From the NCBI GenBank assembly GCA_965368515.1, contig CBDUNF010000001.1, positions 4,265 to 68,264 of the forward strand: a stretch of DNA of 64,000 nucleotides, written 5' to 3'. Of this stretch, positions 3,045 to 32,956 are shown in pieces (within the stretch, counting starts at the first letter, position 1; the number at the start of each line of letters is the position of its first letter). Made by a program: the position numbers and the translations under genes. The stretch comes from an uncultured bacterium. Its GTDB lineage: Bacteria > Actinomycetota > Acidimicrobiia > Spongiisociales > UBA5794. The notes beneath the pieces are model-generated. The model did not search any database. It had not been told where the DNA came from and saw only the letters and a list, made by a program, of their open reading frames with translations.

Positions 3045-4019
3045 CTAGCCCTTCACCGAGCCCGCAGTAATACCTCTCACGAAGAACCTCTGCAGTGCAA
3101 AGAACACGAGTAGAGGCCCGACGGTGATCACAAACGCTCCAGCCGTCAGCAAGTGTTCTCGAGCTCCAAACTCTCCTGCCAGCGATGCCACCACGATCGT
3201 GCCGGGCAGCGCCTCCCTATTGCCCCCGATCATCGTGAGGGCGATCAGGTAGTCGTTCCAGGTCCAGAGGAACTGGAAGATGGCGAACGCAGCCAGCACC
3301 GGAACCGATAACGGGAGAACCAGCCGCCAGAAGACCTTGAAGTGATCGGCGCCGTCGATGGCAGCCGATTCGAACAGGTCTTTCGGCAGGCCTGCGATGT
3401 AGTTGTGCAATAGGAATATCGCGAACGGCATCGCAAAACCGGTGTGGGTTAACCACACCGCCGGTATCTCGCCGGATAAGTCCAAATCCGGGAACAACTG
3501 AACCGTCTTCTCAATGAACGGCAATGTCAGGGCGACACCGTTCGAGTAGGCCGATAGCAGCGGGATCAGCGCCACCTGCGTGGGTACTGCCAACAGAGCC
3601 ACGGTGGCGATGAACAACCACTCCCGGCCCTTGAAGTCGATCCAGGCGAAGGCATACGCGGCAAAAGCTGCGATCGCGATCGGGATGATCGTGGCGACCA
3701 CTGCGATAGCGACTGAGTTGAGCAATGCGTTGCCGAGGCCTGCACCAACGTCGGGGAAGAGCACCTCGCGGTAGTTGTCCAATGTCGGGAAGTCGAACCC
3801 GTTGGCGTTGTCTCTGAAGGCATTCCAGAATCCGCTGCCGCGTTGTGCGTCTCGAGTTCGGAACGAATTCACGAACAAGCTGAAAGTCGGGATCGTCCAT
3901 AGGATGACAAGGATCCAGAGGAACCACGTAGGAATCCCACGGAGGAACCCGTAAATACGCTTCCCCAGGGGACGACGCTGTGTGACGGCGCCGGCGGGTC
4001 GTTGCTTGGTAGTTGTCAT
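3045..4019 (-). CDS. carbohydrate ABC transporter permease (MalG-like)
   Basis: EAA-like loop (ESAAIDGADHFKVFWRLVLPL); multiple TM segments; 4-nt overlap with upstream permease gene. Confidence 0.85.
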   Translation of the reverse strand: MTTTKQRPAGAVTQRRPLGKRIYGFLRGIPTWFLWILVILWTIPTFSLFVNSFRTRDAQRGSGFWNAFRDNANGFDFPTLDNYREVLFPDVGAGLGNALLNSVAIAVVATIIPIAIAAFAAYAFAWIDFKGREWLFIATVALLAVPTQVALIPLLSAYSNGVALTLPFIEKTVQLFPDLDLSGEIPAVWLTHTGFAMPFAIFLLHNYIAGLPKDLFESAAIDGADHFKVFWRLVLPLSVPVLAAFAIFQFLWTWNDYLIALTMIGGNREALPGTIVVASLAGEFGAREHLLTAGAFVITVGPLLVFFALQRFFVRGITAGSVKG

Positions 4020-5920
4020 CCCAGCCTCTCTCTCTGCATCCGTCGAATATTGATCGCCATTACAGGAAGAACAGCGATGAACAGGACGACGGCCACCGCC
4101 GAGCCCATGCCGAAGTCAAGCTGAGTAAAGGCTCGTTCCCACATCTCATTGGCAAGCACCTGGGTATCGAAGTTGCCATTGGTCATGACCTTCGGGATAT
4201 CGAAAACCTTGAGCACCGTGACGACCAGCGTGGTGACCACAACCCCGATCGTGGGATAGATCTGCGGGATCGTCACTCGCCAGAAGGTCTGCGACTCGGT
4301 TGCGCCATCGATGCGTGCTGCCTCCAGGAGATCCTCGGGCACCGCCTTGATGGCGGCTGAGAAGATGACCATGGCGAAACCGGTCTGGATCCAGATGAAC
4401 ACGACCATCATCCAGAAGTTGTTCCACGGAGCTTCCTGGATGAAGAGCACCGGATCTGAGAGCACCCGGATCTCGCCGTCGAATTCGAATAGCTCGAATC
4501 CGCCGATACCGGGTCCGTTGAACTGGTAGATCAACCATCCCAAGCCGGCGACGATGGCCAGGCATCCCGCCACGATGCCGTTAGAGCCTGCCTGCCAGCC
4601 GCGCCAAGCCAGATATCCCAAAGCGGCGATAAACGCCAGCAGCACGATGGTGACGACGAGGCGCGCCGTCCCGGAGTTGCTCCACTCACCGATCATCACC
4701 CAGAGCGAGTTGAGGACGCCGCTCTGCGGATCCTGGGGTGGTCGGGCAACGTAGATCAGACGCCAGATAATCGAGGCGCCGACGAAGCTGATTGCCATCG
4801 GCAGGAAGATCAACGACTTTGCGATGTTCTCTCCCCTGGACCGATCAGCGAGAACAGCCACCGCGAGGCCGAGGGAGACGGCGAACGTGATGACGCTCAA
4901 GATCCACCAGAGGTTGTTGGGAATCGTTCCCCTGATATTGGTAAAGATCGCAAAGAACAACAGCACGACACCGCCGGCCATCAGCGATAGGTTGCCCGGG
5001 TTGACCGAGAAGCCGGCCCCGATCTGCCTACCCGACAGTTTGCCTGCGACGATGCCGAGTATCCCGACCACGACCGCAATCCAGAAGAGAGAGCTGGTAA
5101 GGATGTCGCCCGCCTTATCGAAGTTGATAATGCCGGGATCACTAAACAGCTCTGCATAGTTGGAGAATCCGGTTGGGGATAGGTCGTTCGGGTTCCCGCT
5201 CAAGAAGCTCAACCAGATGGTTCGCCCGAGTGGAATGACCAGAGCGGATCCCACGAACAGGAGCGCCGGGGCCAGGAAGATGTACTTTCTGCTTCCGAGC
5301 GCGATCTCGGCACGTTTCACCCGGGACGGCCGAGGTCGCCATCCCACGGCCAATCCAACCAGGAGGCCGAGGACGATTGCGACCACGATCATTTCGACGC
5401 GGGAACCATCGAGCGTGGCTGCCACCCAGGCACCGAGCAGCCAACCGAATGCCGCTCCGGCTATGAGCGACCGTGTCAGCTTCTCCGGGTCTCTACCTTT
5501 CAGCACCCAGATCAGGAATCCCAAACCGACGCCGATGAGCAGGCCGACGATCACACCGATAGGGTCGATCGAGGGCTTGATCGTTTGGTCGGCGGCGACA
5601 CCAAGGAGCACCCCGAGCGCACCACCTCCGGCTGCACCGACGATCATCCGCTGGGTGCGGTCCTGGATCAGGCTGAGGGCCAGCCCGGTACCGCCGCCAA
5701 TCACTAAAGCGACCAAGGTGACTACAACCGGGGAATCGATCATGCGATTACCCCAGAGCAATAGGAACACCACGCCCGACAGGAGACCTCCCGTGATGGT
5801 GCTGTAGCGCGGGTATTTGTCCTCGGTCAGGTCAAACACCTTGTTGACCCCGATGAAGATCAGGGCGCTCAAGCCTATGGCACCGACGATGCCTAGGACG
5901 GTGACGACAAGTCTGTTCAT
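4016..5920 (-). CDS. carbohydrate ABC transporter permease (MalF-like, extended N-terminal membrane domain)
   Basis: C-terminal EAA motif (EAARIDGATESQTFWRVTIP); about 12+ predicted TM helices; in operon with the substrate-binding protein and MalG-like gene. Confidence 0.8.
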   Translation of the reverse strand: MNRLVVTVLGIVGAIGLSALIFIGVNKVFDLTEDKYPRYSTITGGLLSGVVFLLLWGNRMIDSPVVVTLVALVIGGGTGLALSLIQDRTQRMIVGAAGGGALGVLLGVAADQTIKPSIDPIGVIVGLLIGVGLGFLIWVLKGRDPEKLTRSLIAGAAFGWLLGAWVAATLDGSRVEMIVVAIVLGLLVGLAVGWRPRPSRVKRAEIALGSRKYIFLAPALLFVGSALVIPLGRTIWLSFLSGNPNDLSPTGFSNYAELFSDPGIINFDKAGDILTSSLFWIAVVVGILGIVAGKLSGRQIGAGFSVNPGNLSLMAGGVVLLFFAIFTNIRGTIPNNLWWILSVITFAVSLGLAVAVLADRSRGENIAKSLIFLPMAISFVGASIIWRLIYVARPPQDPQSGVLNSLWVMIGEWSNSGTARLVVTIVLLAFIAALGYLAWRGWQAGSNGIVAGCLAIVAGLGWLIYQFNGPGIGGFELFEFDGEIRVLSDPVLFIQEAPWNNFWMMVVFIWIQTGFAMVIFSAAIKAVPEDLLEAARIDGATESQTFWRVTIPQIYPTIGVVVTTLVVTVLKVFDIPKVMTNGNFDTQVLANEMWERAFTQLDFGMGSAVAVVLFIAVLPVMAINIRRMQRERLG

Positions 5921-5977
5921 GGTTCTCCCTTGTCCGCTCCCGGTTGGTTCAATCTAGTGAACCGATCTTGCTGGCGC

Positions 5978-6017
5978 CGAAAAGACAGAAGCCAGCCCGC
6001 AATGCGGGCTGGCTTCT
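5978..6017 (-). terminator. intrinsic terminator/attenuator hairpin between the substrate-binding protein and permease genes (14-bp perfect stem)
   Basis: AGAAGCCAGCCCGC-AAT-GCGGGCTGGCTTCT, followed on the minus strand by a TCTTTTC tract. Confidence 0.5.
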
Positions 6018-6040
6018 GTGTCTATCACGCTTGAACCGGA

Positions 6041-7450
6041 CTAGTTGGTCGGCCAAGCAGCGTCGATGGCGGTAAATGCATCCTCAACGCTCTTGTCACC
6101 GTTGACTGCGCTGGTGCCTTCAGTCCAGAAGGCTCCTGAACCGACCGCGGCCGGCATCAGGTCCGAGCCATCGAAACGGGCCGGAGCCGCGTTCAACAGG
6201 ATCGAGATGAAGCCGCCCTCGAGCTCGTTCCACAAGCTCAGGTCGACACCGAGGTTCGAAGTCAGGAAGCCAGAGGCGTCGCCGCCCTTGATCTCCCGCT
6301 GCGCCTTCTGACGCTCTTCGGCATACTCGGTGGAACCAAGGTACTCCATCACTGCCCACACCTCGGGGGCGTCACGGAACGCTGCTGCCGAGTTGCCGGC
6401 GGTCAGCGTCGGGGACGAGTCCGTGTCGACGTTCGGGAAGTAGAACGTGCCGATCTGGCCGCCCTCACCAACGGTCGTGCCTTCAGGCAGGAACGCAGCG
6501 AAGAATGAGGCCTGGCGAACCATGGCGCAAGTGCCGTCGACGAGCGGCTGCCCGTGATCAGCGCTGTGTGCCGTAGCTGAGATCGAACCGCCAGCAGCAT
6601 AGGTGTTGCCCGGCGTGTTCCAGATGTCCAGGATCGCGTTGGCCACAGCCGTGACTCGCGGATCCGAGAACTTCAGCTCATTGGAAGTCCACTGGTCGTA
6701 GGCCTCGGGGCCTTCGAGCCGCAGCATCATGTCTTCCATCCAGTCGGTGAAAACCCAACCGGTGGCAGGTCCGGATTCGATACCGATGCACCAAGGGGTT
6801 TGGCTAGCAGCGATCATCTCATTGCTGAGAGTAACGAGCTCATCGAATGTCGTCGGGATCGCATAGCCGCCGTCGGCGAAGACCTGCTGGTTGTACCAGA
6901 CGATCGACTTCAGGTCGGTCTTGACCTGGAAGGCGTAGACATCGTCCTCATACGTGTAGGTCTCGAGCGTGCCCGCCGGCCACTGTGGCCTGACGACAGC
7001 CTCGACAGCATCCGGAATGGGTAGCAGGAAGCCCTGCGCAGCAAAGTCGAGGACCTTGCCGGGCTGCGGGAACATTGCGATATCCGGCGGGTTGCCACCG
7101 GCTGCCTGTGCGTTGATCTGGTCCGAGAAGTCACGAGCACCAGTGTGGGTGATCGTCATCCCGTTCCGCTCGGCAAAGACGTCGAGCGCCCGCTGAATGC
7201 CGGTCGCCTCGTCCGCACCATCCTCAGAAGAGAAGATCGTTACGCTTGTTCCCGCGAGGTCCACCATTGGGGCCTCTGTTGTATCGGGTGCGGCAGTGGT
7301 ATCGGTTCCACCATCGCTTGGCGCGGCCGTCGTTTCGGCCGCCGTTGTGTCTGAGGGTGCCGCCGTTGTGCCTTCATCCGCATCGTCGCCGCACGCAGCA
7401 GCAAAGAGAGCGAAGACAACAAGCAGCAGCAGCCACTTGAATTGCTTCAT
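6041..7450 (-). CDS. sugar ABC transporter substrate-binding lipoprotein
   Basis: Lipoprotein signal LLLVVFALFAAACGDD; Thr/Ala-rich linker; extracellular solute-binding fold; AAGGAGGAGG RBS upstream of ATG at 7450. Confidence 0.85.
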   Translation of the reverse strand: MKQFKWLLLLVVFALFAAACGDDADEGTTAAPSDTTAAETTAAPSDGGTDTTAAPDTTEAPMVDLAGTSVTIFSSEDGADEATGIQRALDVFAERNGMTITHTGARDFSDQINAQAAGGNPPDIAMFPQPGKVLDFAAQGFLLPIPDAVEAVVRPQWPAGTLETYTYEDDVYAFQVKTDLKSIVWYNQQVFADGGYAIPTTFDELVTLSNEMIAASQTPWCIGIESGPATGWVFTDWMEDMMLRLEGPEAYDQWTSNELKFSDPRVTAVANAILDIWNTPGNTYAAGGSISATAHSADHGQPLVDGTCAMVRQASFFAAFLPEGTTVGEGGQIGTFYFPNVDTDSSPTLTAGNSAAAFRDAPEVWAVMEYLGSTEYAEERQKAQREIKGGDASGFLTSNLGVDLSLWNELEGGFISILLNAAPARFDGSDLMPAAVGSGAFWTEGTSAVNGDKSVEDAFTAIDAAWPTN

Positions 7451-7676
7451 GGAGTCCTCCTCCTTGAGCATCGGCCGAGCGCCGATGCAGGGATAACCAT
7501 ACCGACCGCTACCGGTCGCGCAAAGTCACGACGGCCCACTTCTTTCCAAGAATGGAAGCGCATCCACAGTCGGTGGAACTTCGATTGGTTAGGGCCAGGT
7601 AGTAGCCTCGACTGGAGGCGAGTTGGTGCACGCTGTTTCCCCCGAGGACACACACCCGCAAGCCGGGTAGAAAAAC

Positions 7677-7723: not shown

Positions 7724-8656
7724 ATGGCCCAAGTAGTCGTATCCGAATTCATGAACGAAGCAGCGGTAGAGCCGCTGCGCGAGAAGTTCACCGTTCTATT
7801 CGACCCGGGATTGGTCGATGACCGCAACCGCCTGTTGGCGGAGCTGAGTGAAGCCGAGGCGATCATCGTTCGCAATCGAACGCAAGTCGATGCTGGCTTG
7901 CTGGCTGCCGCTCCCCGGTTGCGAGCCGTCGGACGGCTTGGTGTTGGTCTCGACAACATCGATCTCCAAGCGTGTGCAGATCGCGGAGTTGTGGTCCACC
8001 CCGCGACCGGTGCCAACGCACTAGCGGTCGCCGAGTATGTAGTTGCCTCACTCCTTATGTTGTTCCGCGGTGCGTACCAGTCGAAGGATCGGATGCTCGA
8101 CGGATCCTGGCCCCGAGCCGACCTTCAAGGTCGGGAAACTGCGGGCAAGTCTCTGGCGCTCGTCGGGCTCGGTGAGATTGCGCGCCTCGTTGCCGTGCGT
8201 GCCTCCGCCCTCGGAATGAACGTTGCCGCCTTCGATCCGTTTATTGCCGATACCGACCCGGTCTGGGATGACATCGATCGCCGCGAGACTGTCGATGCGG
8301 TGCTCGCCGGCGCAGACGCGGTGAGCGTTCACGTTCCGCTCACCGACGAGACCCGACACATACTCAACGCGTCGAGTCTCGGTGTGCTGGCCCCGGGCGC
8401 GGTTGTCGTGAATACCGCTCGTGGGGGCATCGTTGACGATGCTGCCCTCGCAGCCGCGATTCGCGCCGGGAAGATCGCCGGCGCCGCGCTTGATGTGTTC
8501 GAGGTCGAGCCGTTGACCGCTGTGGCCGCAGAGCCGTTTGTTGGACTCGACAACGTCGTGCTGACCCCACACATCGCAGGCCTCACCGCAGAATCGAATT
8601 CGCGAGTTAGCGACGTGACCGTCGCCAATGTGTTAGCAACCCTGACGAGCAAGTAG
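7724..8656 (+). CDS. D-isomer-specific 2-hydroxyacid dehydrogenase (PGDH/GyaR-like)
   Basis: NAD-binding GLGEIAR-like motif and catalytic R/E/H arrangement (NTARGGIVDDAAL...DVFEVEP...TPHIAG). Confidence 0.8.
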   Translation: MAQVVVSEFMNEAAVEPLREKFTVLFDPGLVDDRNRLLAELSEAEAIIVRNRTQVDAGLLAAAPRLRAVGRLGVGLDNIDLQACADRGVVVHPATGANALAVAEYVVASLLMLFRGAYQSKDRMLDGSWPRADLQGRETAGKSLALVGLGEIARLVAVRASALGMNVAAFDPFIADTDPVWDDIDRRETVDAVLAGADAVSVHVPLTDETRHILNASSLGVLAPGAVVVNTARGGIVDDAALAAAIRAGKIAGAALDVFEVEPLTAVAAEPFVGLDNVVLTPHIAGLTAESNSRVSDVTVANVLATLTSK

Positions 8657-8665: not shown

Positions 8666-9328
8666 ATGAAGTTCTTCCTCGATAGTGCCATGACCGACGA
8701 GATCGAATATGCCCTCGAGATGTGGGACATCGACGGGGTCACCACCAACCCACGTCACGTTCAGGTTTCCGGCAAACCGTTCATGACCGTCATCGCCGAG
8801 ATCGCCAAGATCTTCGACGGGACCGACAAGCCGATCTCGGTCGAGGTCAATCCTCACTTCGATGATTGGACAGAGATGGTGACGGAAGGCAAGAAGCTCG
8901 CCGCCCTGTCTCCCAACTTCATCATCAAGCTTCCCGCCACCGAGCCCGGATACAAGGCCGTCCACGAACTGGCCAAGGACGGCATCCAGTCGAACCTGAC
9001 TCTCGTATTCTCGGCAGCCCAGGCACTCCAAGCGATGCGCATGGGTGCGGCGTTCGTATCCCCGTTTGTCGGCTGGAAGGAAAGCAACGGCGAAGAGATC
9101 ACTCACTTCATCGACGAGGTGGCCGCGATCCGCAACGTCTTCGGATACGACACGGAGATCATCGTTGCGGCCGCCCGCAACGCCAGGCAGATCACCAACT
9201 CTGCCGTCGTCGGTGCCGACATTGTTACCGCCGGCATGCCGGTGTTCAAGGACAGCTTCGCTCATCCCTACACGGACGTTGGACTCGGCAAGTTCCAGGC
9301 TTTCTGGGACGACACCCCGTACGAGTAG
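8666..9328 (+). CDS. fructose-6-phosphate aldolase / transaldolase family protein (Fsa/TalC-like)
   Basis: MKFFLDSA...GVTTNP N-terminal signature of the Fsa/TalC subfamily; 220 aa. Confidence 0.8.
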   Translation: MKFFLDSAMTDEIEYALEMWDIDGVTTNPRHVQVSGKPFMTVIAEIAKIFDGTDKPISVEVNPHFDDWTEMVTEGKKLAALSPNFIIKLPATEPGYKAVHELAKDGIQSNLTLVFSAAQALQAMRMGAAFVSPFVGWKESNGEEITHFIDEVAAIRNVFGYDTEIIVAAARNARQITNSAVVGADIVTAGMPVFKDSFAHPYTDVGLGKFQAFWDDTPYE

Positions 9329-9332: not shown

Positions 9333-10745
9333 GTGACCTCACCCCGCAAGAGACTCGGTGTCCTCGCCCTCGCCCGGCCTACCTTCGACGTTCCGTACGC
9401 AGAAGAGGTTGCCACCGCCGCAATGGAAACGCTGACGGGTCTCGACGCCGATCTGCTGGGCAACTCCGATCTCTTGTTCGACGCTGAGTCGACCGAGAAG
9501 GCGCTGGAGCAGTTCGTCGGTGTCGAACTCGACGCGTTGTTGTTGCTCCAGGTTTCGTTCACCGACTCGTCGATGACCGAAGCCATCGGGGCCCGTTTCG
9601 ATGCCCCCATTGTCATCTGGTCGTTCCCGGAGGCCCGGGTGGGTGGGCGGCTGCGCCTCAACTCGTTCTGTGGTCTCAACCTGGCTGCCTACGCACTGAT
9701 CAAGTCCGGTAGCGACTTCGACTACGTGCACCGCCTTGCGGACGACGCTGGTGCGATCGATGACATCGTCGCCCTGCTCGCTGGTGACATCAAGCAAGAT
9801 GCAAGTCGGCGGCGCCCCCCTCGATCCGCCTCACCAGCCGCGCAACAGACCGCGACCGCGGTTGCAGCGACGCTGGCGACGACGAGGATCGGTGTCATTG
9901 GTGATCGTCCCGTTGGGTTCGACCCCTGTGGCTACGACCAGGAGACATTGGCGGAAGTCACCGGGGTGATGGTCGATCGCAAAGAGCTAGAAGACCTGTT
10001 CGGGAGCGCAGCAGCGACGCCGATCGAAATCGTGTCGGCTACGCGGGAACGTGCGGTCGAGCGACTCGGCAATCTCGACGATCTGGACCAGGAAGCTCTC
10101 GACAAGTCGCTCAGCCTCTACGGGGGACTGAAGACGTTGATCGACGCTGGTGGCTGGTCCGGTGTTGCCACCCGGTGTTGGCCGGAGTGCTTCACCGACT
10201 ACGGAGGCGCCGCATGCTCTCCGCAGAGCATGCTCATCGACGATGGCATCCCCGGAACCTGCGAGGCCGATGTATATGGCAACGTGACCGCCCTGCTGCT
10301 GCAGCACACGGCGGGCGAACCATCGTTCGTTGCCGATCTGGTTGAGATGGACACCGACGGGAAGACCGGAGTTCTCTGGCATTGCGGTCTGGCCCCCATG
10401 CACATGGCACCCGATGACGGGTCTGCGGTTGGGACTATTCACTCCAACCGGAAGCTGCCGCTGCTCAACGAGTTTGCGCTCCGCCCCGGTCGGGTCACGC
10501 TATGCCGTCTGAGCCAGGCGGGTGGGGTTCATTCCCTGGTCATCGGCGGCGGTACGATGCTCGATGAGCCGCTTGCATTCTCTGGCACCGCTGGTGTCGT
10601 CGAATTCGACCGGTCGGCATCCGAAGTCGTGGCAACCATCGCTAGGGAGGGCCTCGAGCATCATTTCGGAATTGTGTACGGCGACTATCGCGAAGAATTA
10701 GAAGCCCTAGCTGCAGGCTGGGGCATCCCCGTTATCGATCTCTAG
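9333..10745 (+). CDS. L-arabinose isomerase / L-fucose isomerase family sugar isomerase
   Basis: Conserved metal-site blocks matching AraA (GTCEADVYGNVTALL ~ GEGDWKTAALL; VADLVEMD...GVLWHCGLAPMHMA ~ MEDYTYHF...GSHMLE); GTG start 5 nt after the Fsa gene stop. Confidence 0.6.
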   Translation: MTSPRKRLGVLALARPTFDVPYAEEVATAAMETLTGLDADLLGNSDLLFDAESTEKALEQFVGVELDALLLLQVSFTDSSMTEAIGARFDAPIVIWSFPEARVGGRLRLNSFCGLNLAAYALIKSGSDFDYVHRLADDAGAIDDIVALLAGDIKQDASRRRPPRSASPAAQQTATAVAATLATTRIGVIGDRPVGFDPCGYDQETLAEVTGVMVDRKELEDLFGSAAATPIEIVSATRERAVERLGNLDDLDQEALDKSLSLYGGLKTLIDAGGWSGVATRCWPECFTDYGGAACSPQSMLIDDGIPGTCEADVYGNVTALLLQHTAGEPSFVADLVEMDTDGKTGVLWHCGLAPMHMAPDDGSAVGTIHSNRKLPLLNEFALRPGRVTLCRLSQAGGVHSLVIGGGTMLDEPLAFSGTAGVVEFDRSASEVVATIAREGLEHHFGIVYGDYREELEALAAGWGIPVIDL

Positions 10746-10758: not shown

Positions 10759-11778
10759 ATGAGCAAAGTAAAGGTCGGCGTCGCCGGCTACGGAGTAATT
10801 GGGAACCGGCTCGCCGCTGGTGTCGCCATGCAAGAGGACATGGAGCTCGTCGGTGTTGCCGATGTCGCCCCGACCCTTCCCGTTCGTGCGCTCAAAGAGC
10901 GCGGGATGCCCTTCAAGTTGTTCACGGCATACGATGGCGCAGAGGTTGCGCTCGAAGAAGCAGGCATCCCGGTGTCCGGTGGCTTCGATGACTTGCTCGG
11001 CGAAGTCGATGTGATGCTCGACGCCGCTCCCGGTGGCATCGGAGCCAAGAACAAAGAGAAGTACGTGGCTGCGGGCGTCAAAGCGGTCTTCCAGGGCGGC
11101 GAGTCCGGAGAGGTGGCCGATGTTTTCTTCCACGGCACCGTCAACTACGAGAAGGGGCTTGGCGTTGACTACTTGAAGCTGACTTCGTGTAACACCACCG
11201 GCCTCATCCGTGCGGTCGATGCGGTGCACAAGGCTGTCGGTGTAAGCAAGACATTCATCACCATCATCCGCCGTGTTGCCGATCCGGGTGACACCCATCG
11301 TGGTCTCACCAACGTCCTGCAGGTGGAGCCAATCCCAAACCATCAGGCCGTTGACCTCGAGAACATCATGGACGGCGTTGCCGCCACTGGTCTTTTGGTC
11401 CACACCCCTGTCACCCACGGTCACATCATCACCATCTCGGCAACGCCGAAGGAGAAGATTTCCGTCGAAGATGCGATCGCCGCCTTCAAGGCGTATCCCC
11501 GCATCAAGGTCGTCAAGATTGCCGAAGGGTTCGACTCGAACTCATCGCTGTTCCAGTGGGCCCGCTACATGGAGTACCCGCGCGGTGACATGTACGAGAT
11601 CGGTCTCTGGGAGGAGATGGTTGGGCTGTCCGGCGACGATGTGGTGTTCGGCATCAACATCCCGCAGGAGTCGGTGACGATTCCCGAGACCATCGACGCC
11701 ATTCGTGCGTCCATGGAAATGCAGGCGACCGGTGTTGAGGCTGTCGCCTTGACCGACAAGTACCTCGGCATCAAGTAG
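10759..11778 (+). CDS. type II (archaeal-type) glyceraldehyde-3-phosphate dehydrogenase-like NAD(P)-dependent dehydrogenase
   Basis: N-terminal GYGVIGNRL Rossmann motif; active-site LTSCNTTGL, characteristic of archaeal type II GAPDH (type I has SCTTNCL); ~340 aa. Confidence 0.7.
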   Translation: MSKVKVGVAGYGVIGNRLAAGVAMQEDMELVGVADVAPTLPVRALKERGMPFKLFTAYDGAEVALEEAGIPVSGGFDDLLGEVDVMLDAAPGGIGAKNKEKYVAAGVKAVFQGGESGEVADVFFHGTVNYEKGLGVDYLKLTSCNTTGLIRAVDAVHKAVGVSKTFITIIRRVADPGDTHRGLTNVLQVEPIPNHQAVDLENIMDGVAATGLLVHTPVTHGHIITISATPKEKISVEDAIAAFKAYPRIKVVKIAEGFDSNSSLFQWARYMEYPRGDMYEIGLWEEMVGLSGDDVVFGINIPQESVTIPETIDAIRASMEMQATGVEAVALTDKYLGIK

Positions 11779-11790: not shown

Positions 11791-12864
11791 GTGACTGAAG
11801 AGATTCGCTACGGCGTGATCGGCACCGGGATGATGGGTTTGGAGCACATCAACAATGTGAACGCCATCGAAGGCGCCCACGTCGTGGCTATCTCCGATCC
11901 GGATCCCCAGTCGCGCAAGTTCGGCAAAAACACAGCACGACTCGACGATGACATGGTCTTCACGGATCACAAGGACCTGTTGGCGGCAGGGGTGTGCGAT
12001 GCGGTGGTTCTCGTATCACCCAACCACACCCACGCCGACATCATGGAGGACATACTCGCCACCGACGTTCATGTGTTGGTGGAGAAACCCCTGGGGACCA
12101 CCGTCGACGAGTGTCGCCGCATTCTCAAGGCTGCGGAAGGGCACAGGGGCATCGTGTGGATGGGGCTCGAGTATCGGTACAAGCCGCCGATCCAGGCTCT
12201 GATCGATGAGGTTCGGTCCGGTGCGGTTGGCAACATCAAGATGGTCGCGATCCGCGAGCATCGCTTCCCGTTCCTCCCCAAGGTGGGAGATTGGAACAGG
12301 TTCAACCGGAACACCGGCGGCACATTGGTGGAGAAGTGCTGCCATTTCTTCGACCTGATGACACTCATTGCCGAGTCCAAGCCGACCCGTGTCTACGCGT
12401 CCGGTGGTCAGGATGTGAATCACCTCGAGGAGCGCTACGACGGCGAAGTCCCCGACATCCTCGACAACGCCTATGTGATGGTGGATTTTGCGAACGGCAT
12501 TCGGGCACTGCTGGACATCTGCATGTTCGCTGAGGGTTCCCGCAACGAACAAGAGCTGGCTGTCACCGGGGATATCGGCAAGGCCGAGTCCTTTGTGCCG
12601 GAGGCGATCATTCGGCTGGGCCGTCGCGCCGAACGCTCGTCCATAGAGCATCCGGTGTCTGATGATCACGTTGCGTTTCATGGACTCCATGAAGGCGCCA
12701 GCTATCTCGAGCACCTCGACTTCATCGATGCCATCCGCAATGACACGCCGCCCAAGGTGACGCTAGAAGACGGGCTGATGGCGGTTGCCGTCGGCCAGGC
12801 CGCCCACCTGTCGATCGAGGAGAGCCGGCCGGTGATGCTGGCCGAGGTCCTCGGCGACTCTTAG
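11791..12864 (+). CDS. Gfo/Idh/MocA family oxidoreductase
   Basis: N-terminal IRYGVIGTGMMG NAD(P)-binding motif; EKPL motif; typical length. Confidence 0.85.
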   Translation: MTEEIRYGVIGTGMMGLEHINNVNAIEGAHVVAISDPDPQSRKFGKNTARLDDDMVFTDHKDLLAAGVCDAVVLVSPNHTHADIMEDILATDVHVLVEKPLGTTVDECRRILKAAEGHRGIVWMGLEYRYKPPIQALIDEVRSGAVGNIKMVAIREHRFPFLPKVGDWNRFNRNTGGTLVEKCCHFFDLMTLIAESKPTRVYASGGQDVNHLEERYDGEVPDILDNAYVMVDFANGIRALLDICMFAEGSRNEQELAVTGDIGKAESFVPEAIIRLGRRAERSSIEHPVSDDHVAFHGLHEGASYLEHLDFIDAIRNDTPPKVTLEDGLMAVAVGQAAHLSIEESRPVMLAEVLGDS

Positions 12865-12894
12865 GAACCAAACAAACCGGGAGTGAGGAAACAA

Positions 12895-13179
12895 ATGAAA
12901 CCGGACATCGTCATCCACGACCCCACCGACTCAGTCGGTGTTGCGGTAGTGGAAGGGATCGAGGCAGGCCAGGAATTGGCCGTCTGGATCATGGACACAA
13001 ATGAGAACACATCGATCGTCTCGAAGGACCCGATCCCGCTCGGGCACAAGATCGCCATGGTCGATCTCGCCGAGGGCGATACGTTGATCAAGTACGGATA
13101 TGACATTGGCAAGGTCGTGGCGTCCACCCCTACGGGTCACCATGTCCATGTTCACAATGTCAAGACAAAGAAGTGGTAG
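12895..13179 (+). CDS. SAF-domain protein (UxaA-family dehydratase small/N-terminal subunit)
   Basis: ~94 aa; SAF-like beta-clip sequence; immediately upstream of, and likely coupled to, the UxaA-family large subunit. Confidence 0.7.
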
Positions 13180-13189: not shown

Positions 13190-14353
13190 ATGACAGCAAC
13201 AATCAAGGCATACCGGCGCGAGAACGGTCGCGTCGGTATTCGCAACCATGTGATCATCCTGCCGGTCGATGACATCTCGAACGCATGCGTGGAGAAGGTC
13301 GCCAACAACATCTGTGGCACCCTCGCATTGCCGCACGCCTACGGTCGCCTCCAATTCGGCGCCGACCTCGAGCTCACCTTTGACACGCTCATCGGTACTG
13401 GCGCCAACCCGAACGTTGCCGCCGCCATCGTCATCGGCATCGAGCCAAAGTGGACCCAGCGCGTCGTCGACGGCATCGCAGCCACTGGCAAGCCCGTCGC
13501 CGGGTTCTCCATCGAGGAACACGGCGATCTCGAGATCGCTGCCGTTGCCGGACGCAAGGCTCAGGAGTTCGTGCAATGGGCGACTGAGTTGCAGCGCGAA
13601 GACGTTCCGCTGAGCGACCTGTGGATCGCCACCAAGTGCGGAGAATCCGACACGACCTCCGGTCTGGCCTCCAACCCGACGGTCGGGAACATGTTCGACA
13701 AGCTCGAACCCCAGGGCAACTATCTGTGCTTTGGCGAGACTTCCGAGTTGACGGGTGCCGAGATGGTCTGCGCCGACCGGGCCGCCACGCCTGAGGTGCG
13801 GCAGAAGTTCCTCGACACGTGGAACCGCTACAACGACATGATCAATCTCCACAAGACGAGTGATCTGTCCGATAGCCAGCCGACGGCAGGCAATATCGCC
13901 GGCGGTCTCACCACCATCGAAGAGAAGGCCTTCGGCAACTTCCAGAAGATCGGCAAGGAGTGCAAGTACATCGACGTTCTCGAGCCGGCGCAAGCGCCGA
14001 CCAAGGGTCCGGGTCTGTACTTCATGGATACATCGTCGGCGGCTGCCGAGTGCAACACGCTTCAGGCCGCAGCCGGTTTTGCGTTGCACATTTTTACCAC
14101 CGGTCAGGGCAACATCATCGGTCATCCGATCATGCCTGTGGTCAAGGTGACGGCCAACCCGAAGACCGCCCGCCTGATGGCCGACCATGTCGATCTCGAC
14201 GTATCCGGTCTGCTCAGCGGTGAAATGGTCCTGGACGAAGCCGGTGATCAGCTCATCGACATGGTGATCCGCACCGCCAACGGTCGGAACACCGCAGCCG
14301 AAACCCTCGGCCATCGTGAGTTCATCTTCACGAAGCTGTATCAGTCGGCCTAA
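13190..14353 (+). CDS. UxaA family hydrolase (altronate/galactarate dehydratase large subunit-like)
   Basis: Sequence typical of the D-galactarate dehydratase/altronate hydrolase C-terminal domain ([17 protein letters not shown]); split arrangement with the preceding SAF gene. Confidence 0.8.
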
Positions 14354-14390
14354 GACAACAAGGAGCGTCCCTCCCCGGCCTTTCGGGCGG

Positions 14391-14416
14391 CTCCCCCTCC
14401 CGAACGGGAGGGGGAG
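14391..14416. terminator. strong GC hairpin (11-bp perfect stem), probable operon terminator
   Basis: CTCCCCCTCCC-GAAC-GGGAGGGGGAG directly after the UxaA gene stop; flanked by further CTCCCC/GGGGAG repeats; no U-tract. Confidence 0.35.
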
Positions 14417-14522
14417 TTACCTCTCCCCACTGGGGACGTGCCGTGCGAAGCAGAGGCGGGGAGGGGGCTGATGAGATCAGCTGCAAGGTCGATTACATCG
14501 AACTCCATGGACAAGGAACATC

Positions 14523-15518
14523 ATGATCCGCACCGCGACGGAATTGGAACAACTCGCAACCAAGGTCTTGGTGAAGGCAGGTACCGCCGAACCGGCGGCT
14601 CGCTCGACGGCGAAGGCACTTGTTCGCGCCAATCGTGACGGACTCAGCTCGCACGGGCTAGCCCGGCTCAAGGCTTACTCGGCGCAGGTCGCGGCCGGCA
14701 AGGTTGCCGGGGCAGCGGTCCCTGAGCTGGAGAAGCTTGGCCCCTCGGCCGCTCGTATCGATGCCAAAGAGGGCTTTGCTTTCCCTGCGTTTGATATGGC
14801 GATCGAGGCTCTGGTCGAGATGACGTCGGAGACACCGGTCGCCGGGATCTCGGTTACCAATTCTCATCACTTCGGTGTCGCCGGTCACCATGTCGAACGC
14901 CTTGCCAAGCACGGGGTCGTTGGCCTTGTCTTTGGTAACTCACCCTCCGCTATTGCACCGTGGGGTGGCTCCCGACCTTTGTTTGGAACCAACCCGATTG
15001 CGTTCGGGTTTCCCCGTGCCGATACCGATCCGGTCGTGGTGGATCTGTCCCTTTCCAAGCAGGCTCGGGGCAAGGTGATGCTCGCTGCTCAGGAGGGCCG
15101 CGACATACCTGAAGGTTGGGCGATCGACTCCGATGGCAACGCGACGACGGATCCCAAGGCGGCTCTCGGCGGTTCGATGTTGCCTCTTGGCGACGCCAAG
15201 GGAGCGGCGTTGGTGTTGGCGGTCGAGATCATGGCTGCCGCGATGACGGGTGCCCACTTCGGATACGAGGCGAGCTCGTTCTTCGACGACAAGGGTGGCC
15301 CGCCCCGGGTCGGCCAATTCATTCTCGGCTTCAATCCAGGTCCGCTGAGCGGTGGTAGCTACGCCGAACGACTCGAAGTGTTGCTGTCCGCCGTCACGGA
15401 CCAGCCGGGGACCCGGCTGCCCGGAGCTCGCCGTGTCCGCGTGCGTATCGAGTCGGCGGCAAACGGGATCGAGATTCCCGATGATCTGTTCCATTGGATG
15501 GAGAGTGCGGTCGGGTAG
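14523..15518 (+). CDS. Ldh family oxidoreductase (malate/L-lactate dehydrogenase family 2)
   Basis: Ldh_2 family conserved blocks (SHGLARL, NSHHFG, GTNPIAFGFP, KGAALVLAVE). Confidence 0.8.
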   Translation: MIRTATELEQLATKVLVKAGTAEPAARSTAKALVRANRDGLSSHGLARLKAYSAQVAAGKVAGAAVPELEKLGPSAARIDAKEGFAFPAFDMAIEALVEMTSETPVAGISVTNSHHFGVAGHHVERLAKHGVVGLVFGNSPSAIAPWGGSRPLFGTNPIAFGFPRADTDPVVVDLSLSKQARGKVMLAAQEGRDIPEGWAIDSDGNATTDPKAALGGSMLPLGDAKGAALVLAVEIMAAAMTGAHFGYEASSFFDDKGGPPRVGQFILGFNPGPLSGGSYAERLEVLLSAVTDQPGTRLPGARRVRVRIESAANGIEIPDDLFHWMESAVG

Positions 15519-16527: not shown

Positions 16528-17241
16528 TCAGGTAACCAACAGCACGAGCGCACCGGTTATGAGAAGGGTGGTTGTGATGCGATCGAACATGTCGCGGTCG
16601 AGCCTGCCGACCACGGCTCGCCCGATGATGACTCCGACCGGGATCGCAAGCCAGGCGTACCAGGTTGATGCGATCAGATCACCGTCGAACAGGCCCGCCA
16701 GGAAATAGGCCGGCACCTTCAGCATGTTGGTGACCGTGAACAGGGCGGCAGAGGTCGCAACGAATTTCCGGGGAGGTAGGTCGGTTGTCAACAGGTAGGC
16801 GAGCACCGGCGGCCCGCCGAGGTGGGCAACGGCGGAGCTAACGCCTGCGACGAACCCGGCCGGCCAGGCTCGCGTCATTGCGAGATGCGCGGCCACCCGG
16901 GTCTTGGTGATGAGGTAATACGCCGCAAAGATCAACATCGCAATGGCGATGAGGTTGCGCAACGCCGGCTCGCTGATGTTGCCGAGAATGGTGCTGCCCA
17001 GGGCGATCCCCACGACGCTGGCCGCCAGCAGCCGAAGCACGATCGGCGTGACCCACTGTCGCCAGTGAGCGGTGATGGTGAACCAATCGGCGACAATCAG
17101 CATGGGCAGCAACAGCCCGATCGCATCGTCTGCCGGCAAAGACAGCGCAACCAGCACCGTGACAAACGGTGACAGCGTCCCTCCGACGCCAGCCTTGCTG
17201 AAGCCGATCAGAAACGCAGCGATGGCGGTGACTATGAGCAC
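16528..17241 (-). CDS. sulfite exporter TauE/SafE family membrane protein
   Basis: 237 aa; two-fold repeated 4-TM architecture with Gly-rich motifs typical of TauE/SafE. Confidence 0.8.
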   Translation of the reverse strand: MLIVTAIAAFLIGFSKAGVGGTLSPFVTVLVALSLPADDAIGLLLPMLIVADWFTITAHWRQWVTPIVLRLLAASVVGIALGSTILGNISEPALRNLIAIAMLIFAAYYLITKTRVAAHLAMTRAWPAGFVAGVSSAVAHLGGPPVLAYLLTTDLPPRKFVATSAALFTVTNMLKVPAYFLAGLFDGDLIASTWYAWLAIPVGVIIGRAVVGRLDRDMFDRITTTLLITGALVLLVT

Positions 17242-17262
17242 CGCGGCACCCTACACCCCGAT

Positions 17263-17311
17263 GCTTCTTGCGTATCTGGTGTCCATATGTGGACGTGGTG
17301 TCCGCCAGAAC
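17263..17311. repeat. 49-bp repeat, copy A (37 nt identical to copy B at 33783-33831); contains hairpin GTCCA-TATG-TGGAC
   Basis: Direct comparison of the two intergenic sequences. Confidence 0.6.
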
Positions 17312-17331
17312 TGAGAAACCCGGGAGCTCGA

Positions 17332-17898
17332 CTACCCGGGCTCGTTGCCCGGCTTCCACTTGATGCCGCAGCCCATCGACGGGTATTGATCTGACGGCTG
17401 CGCAGAGTCGGCGAGCACGGCATCGACGGCGGCTCGCAGGTCGGCACCGGTGACCGGAACGCCGGAGTTGGGACGTGACTCGTCGAACCGTCCGCGGTAG
17501 ACGAGGCTGCGATCGGGACCGAACAGGAAGAAGTCCGGCGTGCATGCGGCGGTGTATGCCTTGGCGACATCCTGCGACGCGTCATAGAGAACGGGGAAGG
17601 TGTAGCCGACCTCTCTCGAAACGAGGCCGAGTTGCTCGGGGCCGTCGTCGGGGTACTGATCGGCGTTGTTGGAGCTAATGGCAATGATGTCGACGTCGCG
17701 GTCGGAATAGTCGCGCCCGAATTCGGCGAGGCCTGCCTGCACATGCTTTACGTATGGGCAGTGGTTGCAGATGAACATCACGACCAGCCCTTTGGCTGAC
17801 AGGTCCCCCAAGGCGACCCGGCCCCCACCCACTGTGTCGGGCAGATCGAAATCGGGGGCGGTAGTTCCCAGGGACAACATGGTGGACTCGACGGCCAT
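17332..17898 (-). CDS. thioredoxin family protein (CxxC; TlpA/peroxiredoxin-like)
   Basis: APDFDLPD...ICNHCPYV CxxC motif; thioredoxin-fold sequence. Confidence 0.75.
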   Translation of the reverse strand: MAVESTMLSLGTTAPDFDLPDTVGGGRVALGDLSAKGLVVMFICNHCPYVKHVQAGLAEFGRDYSDRDVDIIAISSNNADQYPDDGPEQLGLVSREVGYTFPVLYDASQDVAKAYTAACTPDFFLFGPDRSLVYRGRFDESRPNSGVPVTGADLRAAVDAVLADSAQPSDQYPSMGCGIKWKPGNEPG

Positions 17899-19826: not shown

Positions 19827-19836
19827 CACCGTCTCC

Positions 19837-19850
19837 TTGGAACGTTCCAA
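19837..19850. promoter_or_regulatory. 14-bp palindromic operator TTGGAACGTTCCAA (copy 1), overlapping the iolB RBS
   Basis: Perfect palindrome with central AACGTT; identical sequence at four other promoter-proximal sites. Confidence 0.6.
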
Positions 19851-19937
19851 CATGTTGAACCTAATCGGCGGCGCTGGGTGCTGTCAACGCGGTCGAGGCG
19901 CTTGACATACTCGTACCCGGGTGTTTAGCGTGGCTTA

Positions 19938-19951
19938 TTGGAACGTTCCAG
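19938..19951. promoter_or_regulatory. operator copy 2 (TTGGAACGTTCCAG), ~50 nt upstream of iolG and just downstream of a TTGACA...TAGCGT promoter-like pair (19902-19931)
   Basis: 13/14 match to the palindrome; position relative to a candidate -35/-10. Confidence 0.5.
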
Positions 19952-20001
19952 ACAAATCTCGGCGGTCTGATTGATCTGCGGGGAGATGGAAGAGGTGACG
20001 G

Positions 20002-21869: not shown

Positions 21870-21982
21870 TAACGGTTTGCCCTCACGAGCGTCGTGAGGG
21901 TGGAAGGGCCCACTCATGTGGGCGCCCGACTGCGTGGATTGATCCATATAGTCGGGGAGGAAATACGGAGGAGGAACAAGGG

Positions 21983-23005: not shown

Positions 23006-23074
23006 TCGAACGAACTGGCTGGGACCCGCTACGGCGGGTCCCAGCTCTATCCGCAAGAACGGAGGGAGGATTGC

Positions 23075-25017: not shown

Positions 25018-25051
25018 GAGTGATCGGGTCGTGGCTGAGTCTCGTGCTCCG

Positions 25052-25594: not shown

Positions 25595-25654
25595 ATAATG
25601 ACAATAACCCGAGGCTCGGCGCACGCAGCCCGAGCGACCAAGTGAGGTGTTGCG

Positions 25655-28027: not shown

Positions 28028-28100
28028 GCGGGCCATGCCGCACGGTCCGTATCGCCTCTGTGCGTTGCGGGCCGTGCCTCATTCTGTCAGGACCAAACGA

Positions 28101-28114: not shown

Positions 28115-28133
28115 TCACCAGCGTTAGTATCGG

Positions 28134-32954: not shown

Positions 32955-32956
32955 CG

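Follow-up and report, generated by a model that had tools for sequence, protein, structure and literature searches.

A Type II GAPDH-Fold Candidate for SLA Oxidation in a Sulfoquinovose Operon of an Uncultured Acidimicrobiia Bacterium

The gap2 Gene and the Operon around It

The window analyzed here is the whole 64,000-nucleotide (64 kb) stretch of DNA from an uncultured bacterium of the Acidimicrobiia, and the gene of interest, gap2, is an open reading frame in this window that starts with ATG, stops with TAG, and encodes 339 amino acids (Table 1). Profile searches bear out its original classification as an archaeal-type (type II) GAPDH homologue, as the protein exceeds both curated type II models (NCBIfam NF003251, "type II GAPDH", 369.6 bits with a cutoff of 185; TIGR01546, 285 bits with a cutoff of 232.9), with type I GAPDH models reaching only 25.6 bits at best. 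Its single Pfam match is PF02800, the aldehyde dehydrogenase (ALDH) family PF00171 being absent, and the closest solved structures are all archaeal GAPDHs (2CZC, 242 bits; 1CF2, 222 bits; 1B7G, 210 bits; 2YYY, 205 bits). The counter-case raised earlier, an aspartate-semialdehyde-dehydrogenase-like identity, was checked and rejected, as no such model matched gap2 in the NCBIfam and Pfam profile searches. The bacterial type II GAPDHs, gap2 included, form a large monophyletic clade separate from the archaeal enzymes, in which the closest relatives of gap2 come from other Acidimicrobiia. Given this placement, and a GC3 of 0.76 and codon adaptation of 0.735 that are typical for the window, recent horizontal transfer of gap2 was rejected, and the suggestion that the gene was horizontally acquired is to that extent unsupported. 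A protein identical to gap2 was found on 8 metagenome contigs, each time in the same operon.

Table 1. Annotated features of the sulfoquinovose operon and of gap2 (window coordinates)
Feature	Position	Strand	Evidence
Divergent ABC importer (solute-binding protein 6041-7471; permeases 4016-5920 and 3045-4019)	3045..7471	-	PF01547
SlcC-like D-2-hydroxyacid dehydrogenase, putative (S)-sulfolactate dehydrogenase	7724..8656	+	PF02826 + PF00389, Pfam pair of C. salexigens SlcC
Sulfofructose transaldolase (SftT/SF-TAL), SLA-producing	8666..9328	+	PDB 8BC3/8BC4/8BC2
SftI-like sulfoquinovose isomerase, distant relative	9333..10745	+	PF02952; NF048012
gap2, type II GAPDH-fold dehydrogenase, 339 aa, candidate SLA dehydrogenase	10759..11778	+	NF003251, TIGR01546, PDB 2CZC, gene context
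GVADVAPT, Asp35 in place of archaeal Lys33	10852..10875	+	Alignment to archaeal enzymes
LTSCNTTGL active-site block, Ser143-Cys144-Asn145	11179..11205	+	Aligned to S139-C140-N141 of 1CF2
Anion-site residues: Arg171, Arg172 (Ps site) and His195 kept; Gln196 for archaeal Pi-site His194	11263..11355	+	Alignment
SqgA/GH188 NAD+-dependent sulfoquinovosidase	11791..12864	+	PDB 8QC3 (ArSqgA) 346.5 bits, 8QC2 (FlSqgA) 339 bits
SuyA-like small subunit, sulfolactate sulfo-lyase	12883..13179	+	No Pfam match, as for SuyA; weak match to galactarate dehydratase N-terminus
SuyB-like large subunit, sulfolactate sulfo-lyase	13190..14353	+	PF20629 + PF04295, SuyB Pfam signature
ComC-like (R)-sulfolactate dehydrogenase, Ldh_2 family	14523..15518	+	PF02615 326.9 bits; Pfam as in ComC
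TauE/SafE sulfite exporter	16528..17241	-	PF01925 95.7 bits

As originally described, gap2 lies between an isomerase gene and a Gfo-type gene, at distances of 13 and 12 nt, respectively, and outside any gap-pgk-tpi cluster, with no pgk or tpi nearby; across the 64 kb window, no ALDH, PGK, LarA, type I GAPDH, TIM, enolase, or transketolase was found. By homology of its neighbors, the operon is one for sulfoquinovose (SQ) mineralization, which joins the sulfo-transaldolase (sulfo-TAL/SFT) pathway to sulfolactate desulfonation, such that the earlier term "sugar operon" holds as far as it goes and is made more exact by the SqgA, SF-TAL, SftI-like, and SlcC/ComC/SuyAB homologues. The neighbor once read as an Fsa aldolase is instead a sulfofructose transaldolase, with 272 bits (E = 3e-80) against BmSF-TAL, compared with 152 bits for ordinary transaldolases and about 70 bits for Fsa. 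The "GFO oxidoreductase" is a Gfo/Idh/MocA protein, but its function is better assigned as that of the sulfoquinovosidase SqgA, the identities of both matched structures as SqgA being confirmed in the literature (PMC10755693).

The isomerase is more distant from its reference family, scoring 266 bits against NF048012 (cutoff 700), its sole NCBIfam match, and a PDB search returned no solved-structure relative; its homologues adjoin SqgA in 40+ metagenome loci. The desulfonation signature is complete in the operon (PF00389 + PF02826, PF02615, a Pfam-less small subunit, and PF20629 + PF04295), when read against the SlcC, ComC, SuyA, and SuyB Pfam signatures (Table S2 of PMC12421959), with the ComC-like protein having L-sulfolactate dehydrogenase as its top NCBIfam match at 207 bits, under the cutoff. 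The ABC importer is syntenic in six other loci. We note that the public gene call starts the SuyA-like gene at 12895, that iol (inositol) genes lie 1.7 kb past TauE, that a promoter/terminator scan returned 0 promoter-like sites, and that an AT-skew anomaly at 36-42 kb corresponds to ordinary membrane-protein genes. All steps from SQ to pyruvate and sulfite can be assigned except that from 3-sulfolactaldehyde (SLA) to sulfolactate, and since gap2 is the only unassigned gene, it becomes the candidate for SLA oxidation.

Active-Site Residues

The predicted LTSCNTTGL block is present at residues 141-149, and its SCNTTG core has no second occurrence in any of the six reading frames across the window. 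Taking residue roles from a review of the archaeal type II enzymes (PMC12041015), the catalytic pair Cys144 and His220 (His219 in 1CF2 numbering) is intact, and Arg167 and Arg168 of the Ps site correspond to Arg171 and Arg172, although these arginines could bind a sulfonate equally well and so do not discriminate between substrates. At the Pi site (Ser139, Asn141, Arg167, His193, and His194 in 1CF2), four of the five residues are kept, His194 being replaced by Gln196 in gap2 and by Gln in all bacterial clade members examined, and the surrounding loop reads PNHQAVD in gap2 versus SHHGPD in the archaeal enzymes. The second difference is at Lys33, which specifies NADP in the archaeal enzymes (PMC12041015), and the Asp35 that replaces it suggests a preference of gap2 for NAD+. 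As the residues otherwise match those of archaeal GAPDH, activity on GAP is possible. Furthermore, when the operon copies were compared with their PGK-linked sister clade, no active-site substitution divided the two at 85% fixation, and those that did so at 70% were all peripheral; therefore, sequence alone cannot separate the hypotheses weighed below.

gap2 Loci in Other Genomes and the Partner PGK

Among 80 genome loci, 13 contain the same operon, and in an independent isomerase-centered metagenome scan it was present in all 19 of the close loci whose contigs reach this position, although these syntenic loci are phylogenetically related and both counts thus describe non-independent events. 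An ALDH was found in just 4 distant loci of the isomerase-centered scan, all of which lack gap2, such that ALDH and gap2 never occur together. For high-GC loci, gene calls were taken from tblastn and public annotation, as greedy longest-ORF calling gave antisense artifacts.

In 60 of 67 other loci, gap2 is followed by an archaeal-type PGK, whereas none was found in any locus syntenic with the window operon. In all 62 sequences of this partner PGK, Asp, Ser, Gly, or Asn takes the place of Arg65, which in PGK is one of three arginines that bind the 3-phosphate of 3PG. The divergent PGK is the only glycolytic linkage of the gap2 relatives; genes for TIM, enolase, and type I GAPDH were absent within 8 kb of all 84 gap2 loci. 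One metagenome-assembled genome (MAG) carries both an operon copy (L012) and a PGK-linked copy (L045), which suggests that the gap2 copies are specialized paralogues and not one housekeeping gene.

Several PGK-linked copies stand beside genes of sulfonate metabolism, and two of them belong to sulfoglycolysis clusters of other gene arrangements. An Opitutaceae locus (L072) has the order mutarotase-SuyA-SuyB-LarA-TAL-gap2-PGK, together with a YihQ-type GH31 (949 bits) and GlpD, and another locus (L165) contains a PfkB-gap2-PGK-DeoC aldolase-SftI-like isomerase operon, both without an ALDH. SuyAB and LarA adjoin gap2-PGK in five further loci, and SuyAB without LarA lies near gap2 in one more (L022). 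In two sulfoglycolysis clusters (L159 and L160), no SLA-oxidizing gene was found in the recovered stretch, so the gene for a "missing step" may lie elsewhere. Relatives of gap2 in Firmicutes and Chloroflexota are found in inositol or transketolase clusters, and some relatives adjoin AFOR, a family that includes GAPOR.

Proposed Role of gap2 and Comparison with Known Systems

SLA is the sulfonate analogue of glyceraldehyde-3-phosphate (GAP). With SF-TAL and SqgA as neighbors, SLA is the likely substrate of gap2, in place of the GAP released by Fsa or the non-phosphorylated aldose considered originally, whereas the broader idea of a pathway-dedicated aldehyde dehydrogenase remains, from operon context, the best reading. 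We judge it probable that gap2 is an NAD-dependent SLA dehydrogenase of the GAPDH fold, and one that is probably phosphorylating; its assignment to the SLA step is proposed from the operon context only. In this pathway, sulfoquinovosyl glycerol or SQ would be taken up by the ABC importer, SqgA would release SQ, and the SftI-like isomerase would convert SQ to sulfofructose, from which the transaldolase would transfer a C3 unit onto GAP, freeing SLA. We propose that gap2 would oxidize SLA through a thiohemiacetal at Cys144 and then a thioester, after which the SlcC-like and ComC-like dehydrogenases would convert (S)- to (R)-sulfolactate via sulfopyruvate, SuyAB would cleave (R)-sulfolactate to pyruvate and sulfite, and TauE would export the sulfite. 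Release of the thioester by phosphate, to give 3-sulfolactoyl phosphate, which a PGK-type kinase would convert to sulfolactate with formation of ATP, is the most likely outcome, since nearly every phosphate-site residue is retained and the relatives are nearly all PGK-paired. As the operon has no such kinase, it would have to come from elsewhere in the genome.

The known SLA dehydrogenases (SlaB, GabD, and SftD) are all PF00171 ALDHs, and in a 2025 study of another organism with SuyAB, the SLA dehydrogenase is described as "missing". The cross-reactivity of an ALDH-type SLA dehydrogenase with GAP shows how closely the two substrates resemble each other. According to the literature, no functional evidence exists for bacterial type II GAPDHs, and the only one assayed, from P. 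thermosuccinogenes (66% identity to gap2), was inactive on GAP, whereas both type I GAPDHs encoded in that genome did show activity (PMC6543838); this negative result came from cell extracts, and poor expression could be its cause. A search of open-access papers and bioRxiv found no report of sulfolactoyl or sulfolactyl phosphate, a GAPDH-type SLA dehydrogenase, or a transketolase-dependent inositol route.

The main alternative is an ordinary phosphorylating GAPDH of EC 1.2.1.12/13/59, which would convert GAP to 1,3-bisphosphoglycerate and be co-expressed for SQ-derived triose phosphate while SLA is oxidized by an enzyme encoded elsewhere. Such an enzyme is conceivable in this operon, since the adjoining transaldolase uses GAP as a cosubstrate and the carbon is obtained as triose phosphate, and it would be consistent with the equivalog-level HMM scores, the conserved Cys, His, and Ps arginines, the usual pairing of relatives with PGK and occasional proximity to AFOR, and the existence of SQ clusters without a local SLA dehydrogenase. 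We nevertheless consider it unlikely, because it would leave the SLA step without an enzyme in three independent SLA-making cluster layouts, and because tpi, eno, and type I gap are never linked to gap2, Arg65, a phosphate ligand, is missing from the partner PGK, one MAG holds both kinds of gap2 copy, and the P. thermosuccinogenes enzyme failed to act on GAP.

An SLA dehydrogenase turned non-phosphorylating, which would free sulfolactate by hydrolysis and for which the type I GAPDH paralogue Epd of E. coli is a parallel, would explain why PGK is absent from the operon, the whole window, and every syntenic locus, and the loss of the Pi-site His194 is in keeping with it. However, this Gln and the remaining active-site residues are common to the PGK-linked paralogues, no fixed substitution marks the operon clade, and the MAG with a separate gap2-PGK locus could supply the kinase in trans, which makes hydrolytic release rather improbable. 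Least credible is a role on another anionic 2-hydroxy-aldehyde (erythrose-4-phosphate, or the 3-hydroxy-4-oxobutanoate that the neighboring inositol genes would provide) or a non-catalytic one: the inositol and transketolase clusters around Firmicutes and Chloroflexota relatives, and the iol genes beyond TauE, point that way, but gap2 is flanked by SQ genes at no more than 13 nt, transketolase is absent from the window, and the catalytic residues are intact, and we would give this role very little credence.

Beyond SLA oxidation by gap2 itself, we tentatively suggest, with more doubt than confidence, that bacterial type II "GAPDH" and archaeal-type "PGK" constitute a portable ATP-conserving module for GAP-like aldehydes of the form OHC-CHOH-CH2-X that is not glycolytic. 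Where X is a sulfonate, the module would allow substrate-level phosphorylation via 3-sulfolactoyl phosphate in new sulfo-TAL and sulfo-EMP variants; where X is a carboxylate, it would complete a so far undescribed pathway that leads from inositol, with the help of transketolase, to malate and ATP; and the gap2 of the window would be a member of the sulfonate branch recruited without its kinase. SQ is produced at about 10 billion tonnes per year, which makes its degradation a major path in the sulfur cycle, and at least one well-studied organism shows a gap where an SLA dehydrogenase is expected. If the assignment is correct, a GAPDH-fold SLA dehydrogenase would be a second, unrelated solution beside the ALDHs, and a function would have been found for bacterial type II GAPDHs. 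The scoring of pathway completeness in metagenomes would also change, as SlaB/GabD BLAST panels would miss these Acidimicrobiia. If phosphorylating, gap2 would bring energy conservation to the sulfonate branch for the first time.

Compared with the archaeal type II GAPDHs (P. horikoshii 2CZC, M. fervidus 1CF2, and S. solfataricus 1B7G), gap2 shares the HMM family, aligns over the full length, and keeps the SCNTTG Cys, His219, Arg167/Arg168, and His193, but has Asp and Gln for Lys33 and His194 (loop NHQAVD), and whereas the archaeal enzymes serve gluconeogenesis, gap2 belongs to a sulfosugar operon and a separate bacterial clade. The ALDH-superfamily SLA dehydrogenases have the pathway position, substrate, and product proposed for gap2 but an unrelated fold, and they are non-phosphorylating and conserve no energy, whereas the thioester and phosphorolysis chemistry proposed for gap2 could yield ATP. 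E. coli Epd (erythrose-4-phosphate dehydrogenase) is a precedent in which the GAPDH fold was recruited, within a dedicated pathway, for another anionic aldehyde, although, unlike what is proposed for gap2, it is a type I, non-phosphorylating enzyme with a phosphate-bearing substrate. The sulfo-TAL/sulfo-SFT pathway of Bacillus aryabhattai and B. megaterium (SftI, SftT, and SftD) has the sulfofructose transaldolase orthologue and, as a more distant counterpart, the SftI-like isomerase in common with the window operon; here, however, SqgA/GH188 serves as the SQase, a putative GAPDH-fold enzyme would take over the SLA step, and sulfolactate would be desulfonated by SlcC/ComC/SuyAB, with TauE in the locus, and not excreted. 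Finally, the SlcC/ComC-SuyAB system of Chromohalobacter salexigens and Paracoccus has the same four Pfam signatures as the window locus, where, with the ComC model score below its cutoff, they are joined with upstream sulfoglycolysis genes in a single operon.

Family membership and active site of gap2

The gene at 10759–11778, gap2 (a name that we also use for its relatives), encodes 339 amino acids between an ATG start and a TAG stop and is, by homology, a member of the type II (archaeal-type) GAPDH family, as the original prediction had claimed from the active-site block LTSCNTTGL (residues 141–149, nucleotides 11179–11205; across all six reading frames of the window, SCNTTG occurs once). 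Its product passes both NCBIfam type II equivalog cut-offs (NF003251, 369.6 bits, cut-off 185; TIGR01546, 285 bits, cut-off 232.9), while type I models reach at best 25.6 bits, and the aspartate-semialdehyde-dehydrogenase-like alternative found no matching model in the same NCBIfam search. Gp_dh_C is the sole Pfam match, and the nearest solved structures are four archaeal GAPDHs (2CZC 242, 1CF2 222, 1B7G 210, and 2YYY 205 bits), all aligning over the full length of gap2.

Active-site positions are numbered after 1CF2, and residue roles follow PMC12041015, which summarises Charron et al. On this scale gap2 keeps Ser139-Cys140-Asn141, Arg167/Arg168 (where the phosphate of the substrate binds), His193 and His219, as S143, C144, N145, R171, R172, H195 and H220. 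The inorganic-phosphate-site His194 is replaced by Gln196 and the NADP-specifying Lys33 by Asp35, the latter pointing to NAD+ as the cofactor; both changes are common to the entire bacterial clade.

Scanning one genome per species gave 80 loci with gap2 homologues (63–96% identity) from Acidimicrobiia, Chloroflexota, Firmicutes, Atribacterota, Spirochaetota and Verrucomicrobiota. Neighbour-joining groups the bacterial type II proteins into a single clade, well apart from the archaeal enzymes. The operon copies branch as a subclade whose sister consists of PGK-linked copies from Ilumatobacteraceae, and both types occur together in one MAG (L012, L045). Sequence comparison found zero fixed substitutions between operon copies and their PGK-linked sisters; the two probably share the same chemistry. 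Of the suggested horizontal acquisition, a recent event is not supported: GC3 (0.76; window range 0.68–0.81) and codon adaptation (0.735; window range 0.64–0.78) are both unremarkable.

The predicted sulfoquinovose operon and its missing step

Coordinates of the features discussed (window unless a related locus, L plus number, is named)
Feature	Coordinates	Strand	Match or remark
Sugar-type ABC importer	3045–7471	-	divergent from operon
ABC permease	4016–5920	-	634 aa
D-2-hydroxyacid dehydrogenase	7724–8656	+	PF02826 + PF00389
Sulfofructose transaldolase match	8666–9328	+	Bacillus megaterium 8BC3/8BC4/8BC2, 272 bits, E 3e-80
Isomerase, SftI-like	9333–10745	+	SftI (sulfoquinovose isomerase) sole NCBIfam match, 266 bits, below cut-off 700
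gap2	10759–11778	+	fourth gene of the operon, between the isomerase and the SqgA-like gene
SqgA-like NAD+-dependent sulfoquinovosidase (GH188)	11791–12864	+	8QC3 346.5 bits, 8QC2 339 bits
Small protein, SuyA-like	12883–13179	+	no Pfam match
SuyB-like protein	13190–14353	+	PF20629 + PF04295
Spacer	14354–14522		169 nt
Ldh_2 protein, ComC-like	14523–15518	+	PF02615
TauE/SafE sulfite exporter	16528–17241	-	PF01925, 95.7 bits
IolB	18972–19853	-	
IolG-like	20002–20991		
IolE-like	about 21006–21854		
Ribose-type ABC transporter	23075–25017		
SMP-30/gluconolactonase-like gene	26035–26907		
Second Gfo/Idh/MocA gene	29134–30324		
IolD	31008–32954		
Partner PGKs	L081:11030–12298; L072:6865–8133; L165:11023–12345		downstream of gap2
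LarA homologue by SuyAB	L081:7033–8280	-	LarAH5 model, 521 bits, cut-off 462
LarA homologue by SuyAB	L072:3617–4993	+	LarAH5 model, 529 bits, cut-off 462
gap2 cassette adjoining TauE	L006:2578–10970		
gap2-PGK inositol cluster	L166:8759–19147		P. thermosuccinogenes-type contig

The operon comprises eight plus-strand genes with spacers of 9–19 nt except one of 169 nt, and eight metagenome contigs with an identical gap2 protein carry the same gene set in public gene calls. Two neighbours had been misnamed: the supposed Fsa aldolase matches sulfofructose transaldolase far better (272 bits) than ordinary transaldolases (152 bits) or Fsa (about 70 bits), and the supposed GFO oxidoreductase matches ArSqgA (8QC3) and FlSqgA (8QC2), NAD+-dependent sulfoquinovosidases of family GH188 (PMC10755693). 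Four further genes have exactly the Pfam signatures that PMC12421959 (Table S2) gives for the sulfolactate enzymes of a characterised system: SlcC (PF00389 + PF02826), ComC (PF02615), SuyA (none) and SuyB (PF20629 + PF04295). Because of these matches, together with TauE, the locus is predicted to be a sulfo-transaldolase pathway fused with complete sulfolactate desulfonation, the published route running from S-SLA (3-sulfolactaldehyde, the sulfonate analogue of glyceraldehyde-3-phosphate, GAP) through S-sulfolactate, sulfopyruvate and R-sulfolactate to pyruvate and sulfite.

Only one step from sulfoquinovose (SQ) to pyruvate and sulfite, SLA to sulfolactate, lacks a candidate gene, and the sole operon gene left without a role is gap2, which stands two genes downstream from the SLA-releasing enzyme. 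Searching the whole 64 kb by tblastn returned no ALDH, PGK, LarA or type I GAPDH, and the NAD_binding_2 domains of SLA reductases are absent from all operon proteins. We thus lean toward gap2 being the operon's SLA dehydrogenase, which retains from the original interpretation a GAPDH-type, pathway-dedicated aldehyde dehydrogenase, though not the Fsa and GFO identities.

As such a dehydrogenase, gap2 would bind D-SLA, with the same spatial configuration as D-GAP, placing the sulfonate at Arg171 and Arg172; the thiohemiacetal would form at Cys144, the hydride would pass to NAD+, and phosphate would cleave the thioester to 3-sulfolactoyl phosphate, from which a PGK-type kinase would produce sulfolactate and ATP. 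Because the window operon has no PGK, either the kinase would be encoded elsewhere or the thioester would be hydrolysed. What homology and synteny support is which genes the operon contains and in what order, that the catalytic and anion-site residues are kept, and that gap2 occurs in three sulfoglycolysis layouts.

In the main rival reading, which we consider less likely, gap2 would be an ordinary GAPDH that handles triose-phosphate flux; in its favour, the active site is nearly archaeal-like and the transaldolase uses GAP as co-substrate. Among the features of functional GAPDHs tested, gap2 lacks two, as its Pi site is incomplete and it is not linked to glycolytic genes, and no TIM, enolase or type I gap lies within 8 kb of gap2 in the 84 loci examined. 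When the three GAPDH homologues of Pseudoclostridium thermosuccinogenes were expressed, GAP activity was seen for both type I enzymes; the type II one, CDQ83_07070, had none with either NAD+ or NADP+, and its authors note no functional evidence for class II GAPDH in bacteria (Koendjbiharie et al. 2019, PMC6543838).

Elsewhere in the locus, the operon's only long spacer, between the SuyB-like and ComC-like genes, holds an inverted repeat rich in G and C (CTCCCCCTCCCGAACGGGAGGGGGAG); this spacer could serve as an attenuator or internal terminator, or be a REP-like element. The importer's permease is unusually long, with a hydrophobic N-terminal extension of ~300 aa before the usual permease core.

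Cluster layouts and the partner kinase

As an unbiased check, metagenome contigs were also scanned with an isomerase profile. gap2 lies directly downstream of the isomerase in all 19 close loci (at least 75% isomerase identity) with enough contig, none of which has an ALDH. More distant isomerase homologues usually adjoin a SqgA homologue, with an ALDH adjacent in four loci (L127, L149, L150, L158). gap2 and ALDH never occur together across the scanned isomerase loci, which fits functional replacement. Three distant-isomerase loci (L134, L159, L160; L159 with a YihT-type aldolase) have SuyAB, SlcC and ComC and no visible SLA-oxidising gene, showing that clusters can be incomplete, which weakens an argument from the "missing step" alone.

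The window operon is shared, as far as contigs extend, by 13 of the 80 gap2 loci (86–96% identical gap2, Acidimicrobiia); a PGK gene directly follows gap2 in 60 of the remaining 67. An Opitutaceae MAG (L072) has mutarotase-SuyA-SuyB-LarA-transaldolase-gap2-PGK-ROK on one strand and a GlpD-like gene, GH31 (949 bits on YihQ model NF007746, cut-off 553) and a transporter on the opposite one. L165 (gap2 80% identical) reads PfkB-gap2-PGK-DeoC aldolase-SftI-like isomerase; the sulfo-EMP kinase YihV belongs to PF00294, and the aldolase YihT to PF01791. Its gene content is that of a putative five-gene sulfo-EMP-type operon with gap2 and PGK at the place of the SLA reductase or dehydrogenase; L032, L121 and L124 are similar. 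SuyA-SuyB-LarA stands back to back with gap2-PGK in five loci (L019, L028, L029, L030, L033), and L022 has SuyAB with no LarA match. The LarA homologues beside SuyAB in L081 and L072, which pass the cut-off of a model named 'nickel-dependent malate racemase LarAH5', may take the place of the SlcC/ComC pair as one-enzyme sulfolactate racemases. In L006 and L051, a LacI-ABC importer-gap2-PLP-dependent enzyme cassette occupies the chromosomal position of the window SQ operon, with the same TauE and AhpC flanks (window 16528–17898); the PLP-dependent enzyme is possibly a CuyA-like cysteate sulfo-lyase, and this looks like one more sulfonate setting in which the same gap2 clade is found.

The partner PGK most resembles the archaeal Pyrococcus enzyme (2CUN, 251.6 bits, versus 187 bits for Thermotoga) and retains Asp23, Asn25, Arg38, His62, Arg122 and Arg170. 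At Arg65, one of three arginines binding the 3-phosphate of 3PG (PMC7729029), which is Arg in human and E. coli PGK and Lys in 2CUN, the 62 partner sequences have Asp (55), Ser (4), Gly (2) or Asn (1). This replacement would fit a substrate whose 3-substituent is other than a dianionic phosphate.

Inositol-linked relatives and comparison with known systems

P0219, the P. thermosuccinogenes type II protein (66% identity to gap2), lies in a LacI-gap2-PGK-split transketolase-IolB-IolD-IolE-IolG cluster, whose recovered 10 kb flanks lack IolC, IolJ and IolA. Across L166 (the P. thermosuccinogenes-type contig), L067, L075, L077, L078 and L079, gap2-PGK accompanies split transketolase, IolB/KduI, IolD, IolE and IolG, and the recovered flanks showed neither IolC nor IolJ nor IolA. 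Transketolase would cleave 2-deoxy-5-keto-gluconate to 3-hydroxy-4-oxobutanoate, which is GAP with a carboxylate replacing the phosphate and is oxidised to malate. We infer that this is why gap2-PGK often has malic enzyme, a tartrate/D-malate dehydrogenase-like (Iso_dh) protein or the LarAH5 "malate racemase" as a neighbour. The clusters suggest an undescribed transketolase-dependent inositol route to malate and ATP, on which we found no publication in open-access literature and bioRxiv.

The window itself has an inositol-catabolism region right after the SQ locus (18972–33000), in which transketolase is absent. Farther on, 36000–42000 has a strongly negative AT skew (-0.26 to -0.33) and encodes Mrp/complex-I-type antiporter subunits (PF00361, MbhD/MbhE); we attribute the anomaly to the ordinary composition effect of membrane proteins.

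Neither GAPDH nor PGK is mentioned for sulfoglycolysis in two reviews from 2026, in an SQ-degrader survey of the same year or in the Pfam tables of the SqgA paper, and open-access literature and bioRxiv yielded no publication on sulfolactoyl phosphate. In gap2, a pathway and a fold that are each known come together in a way that is new, probably with a new substrate, and a GAPDH-type SLA dehydrogenase would be unexpected for the GAPDH and sulfoglycolysis fields alike. SLA dehydrogenases described to date all belong to PF00171; gap2 lies outside that family, though it probably fills the same role.
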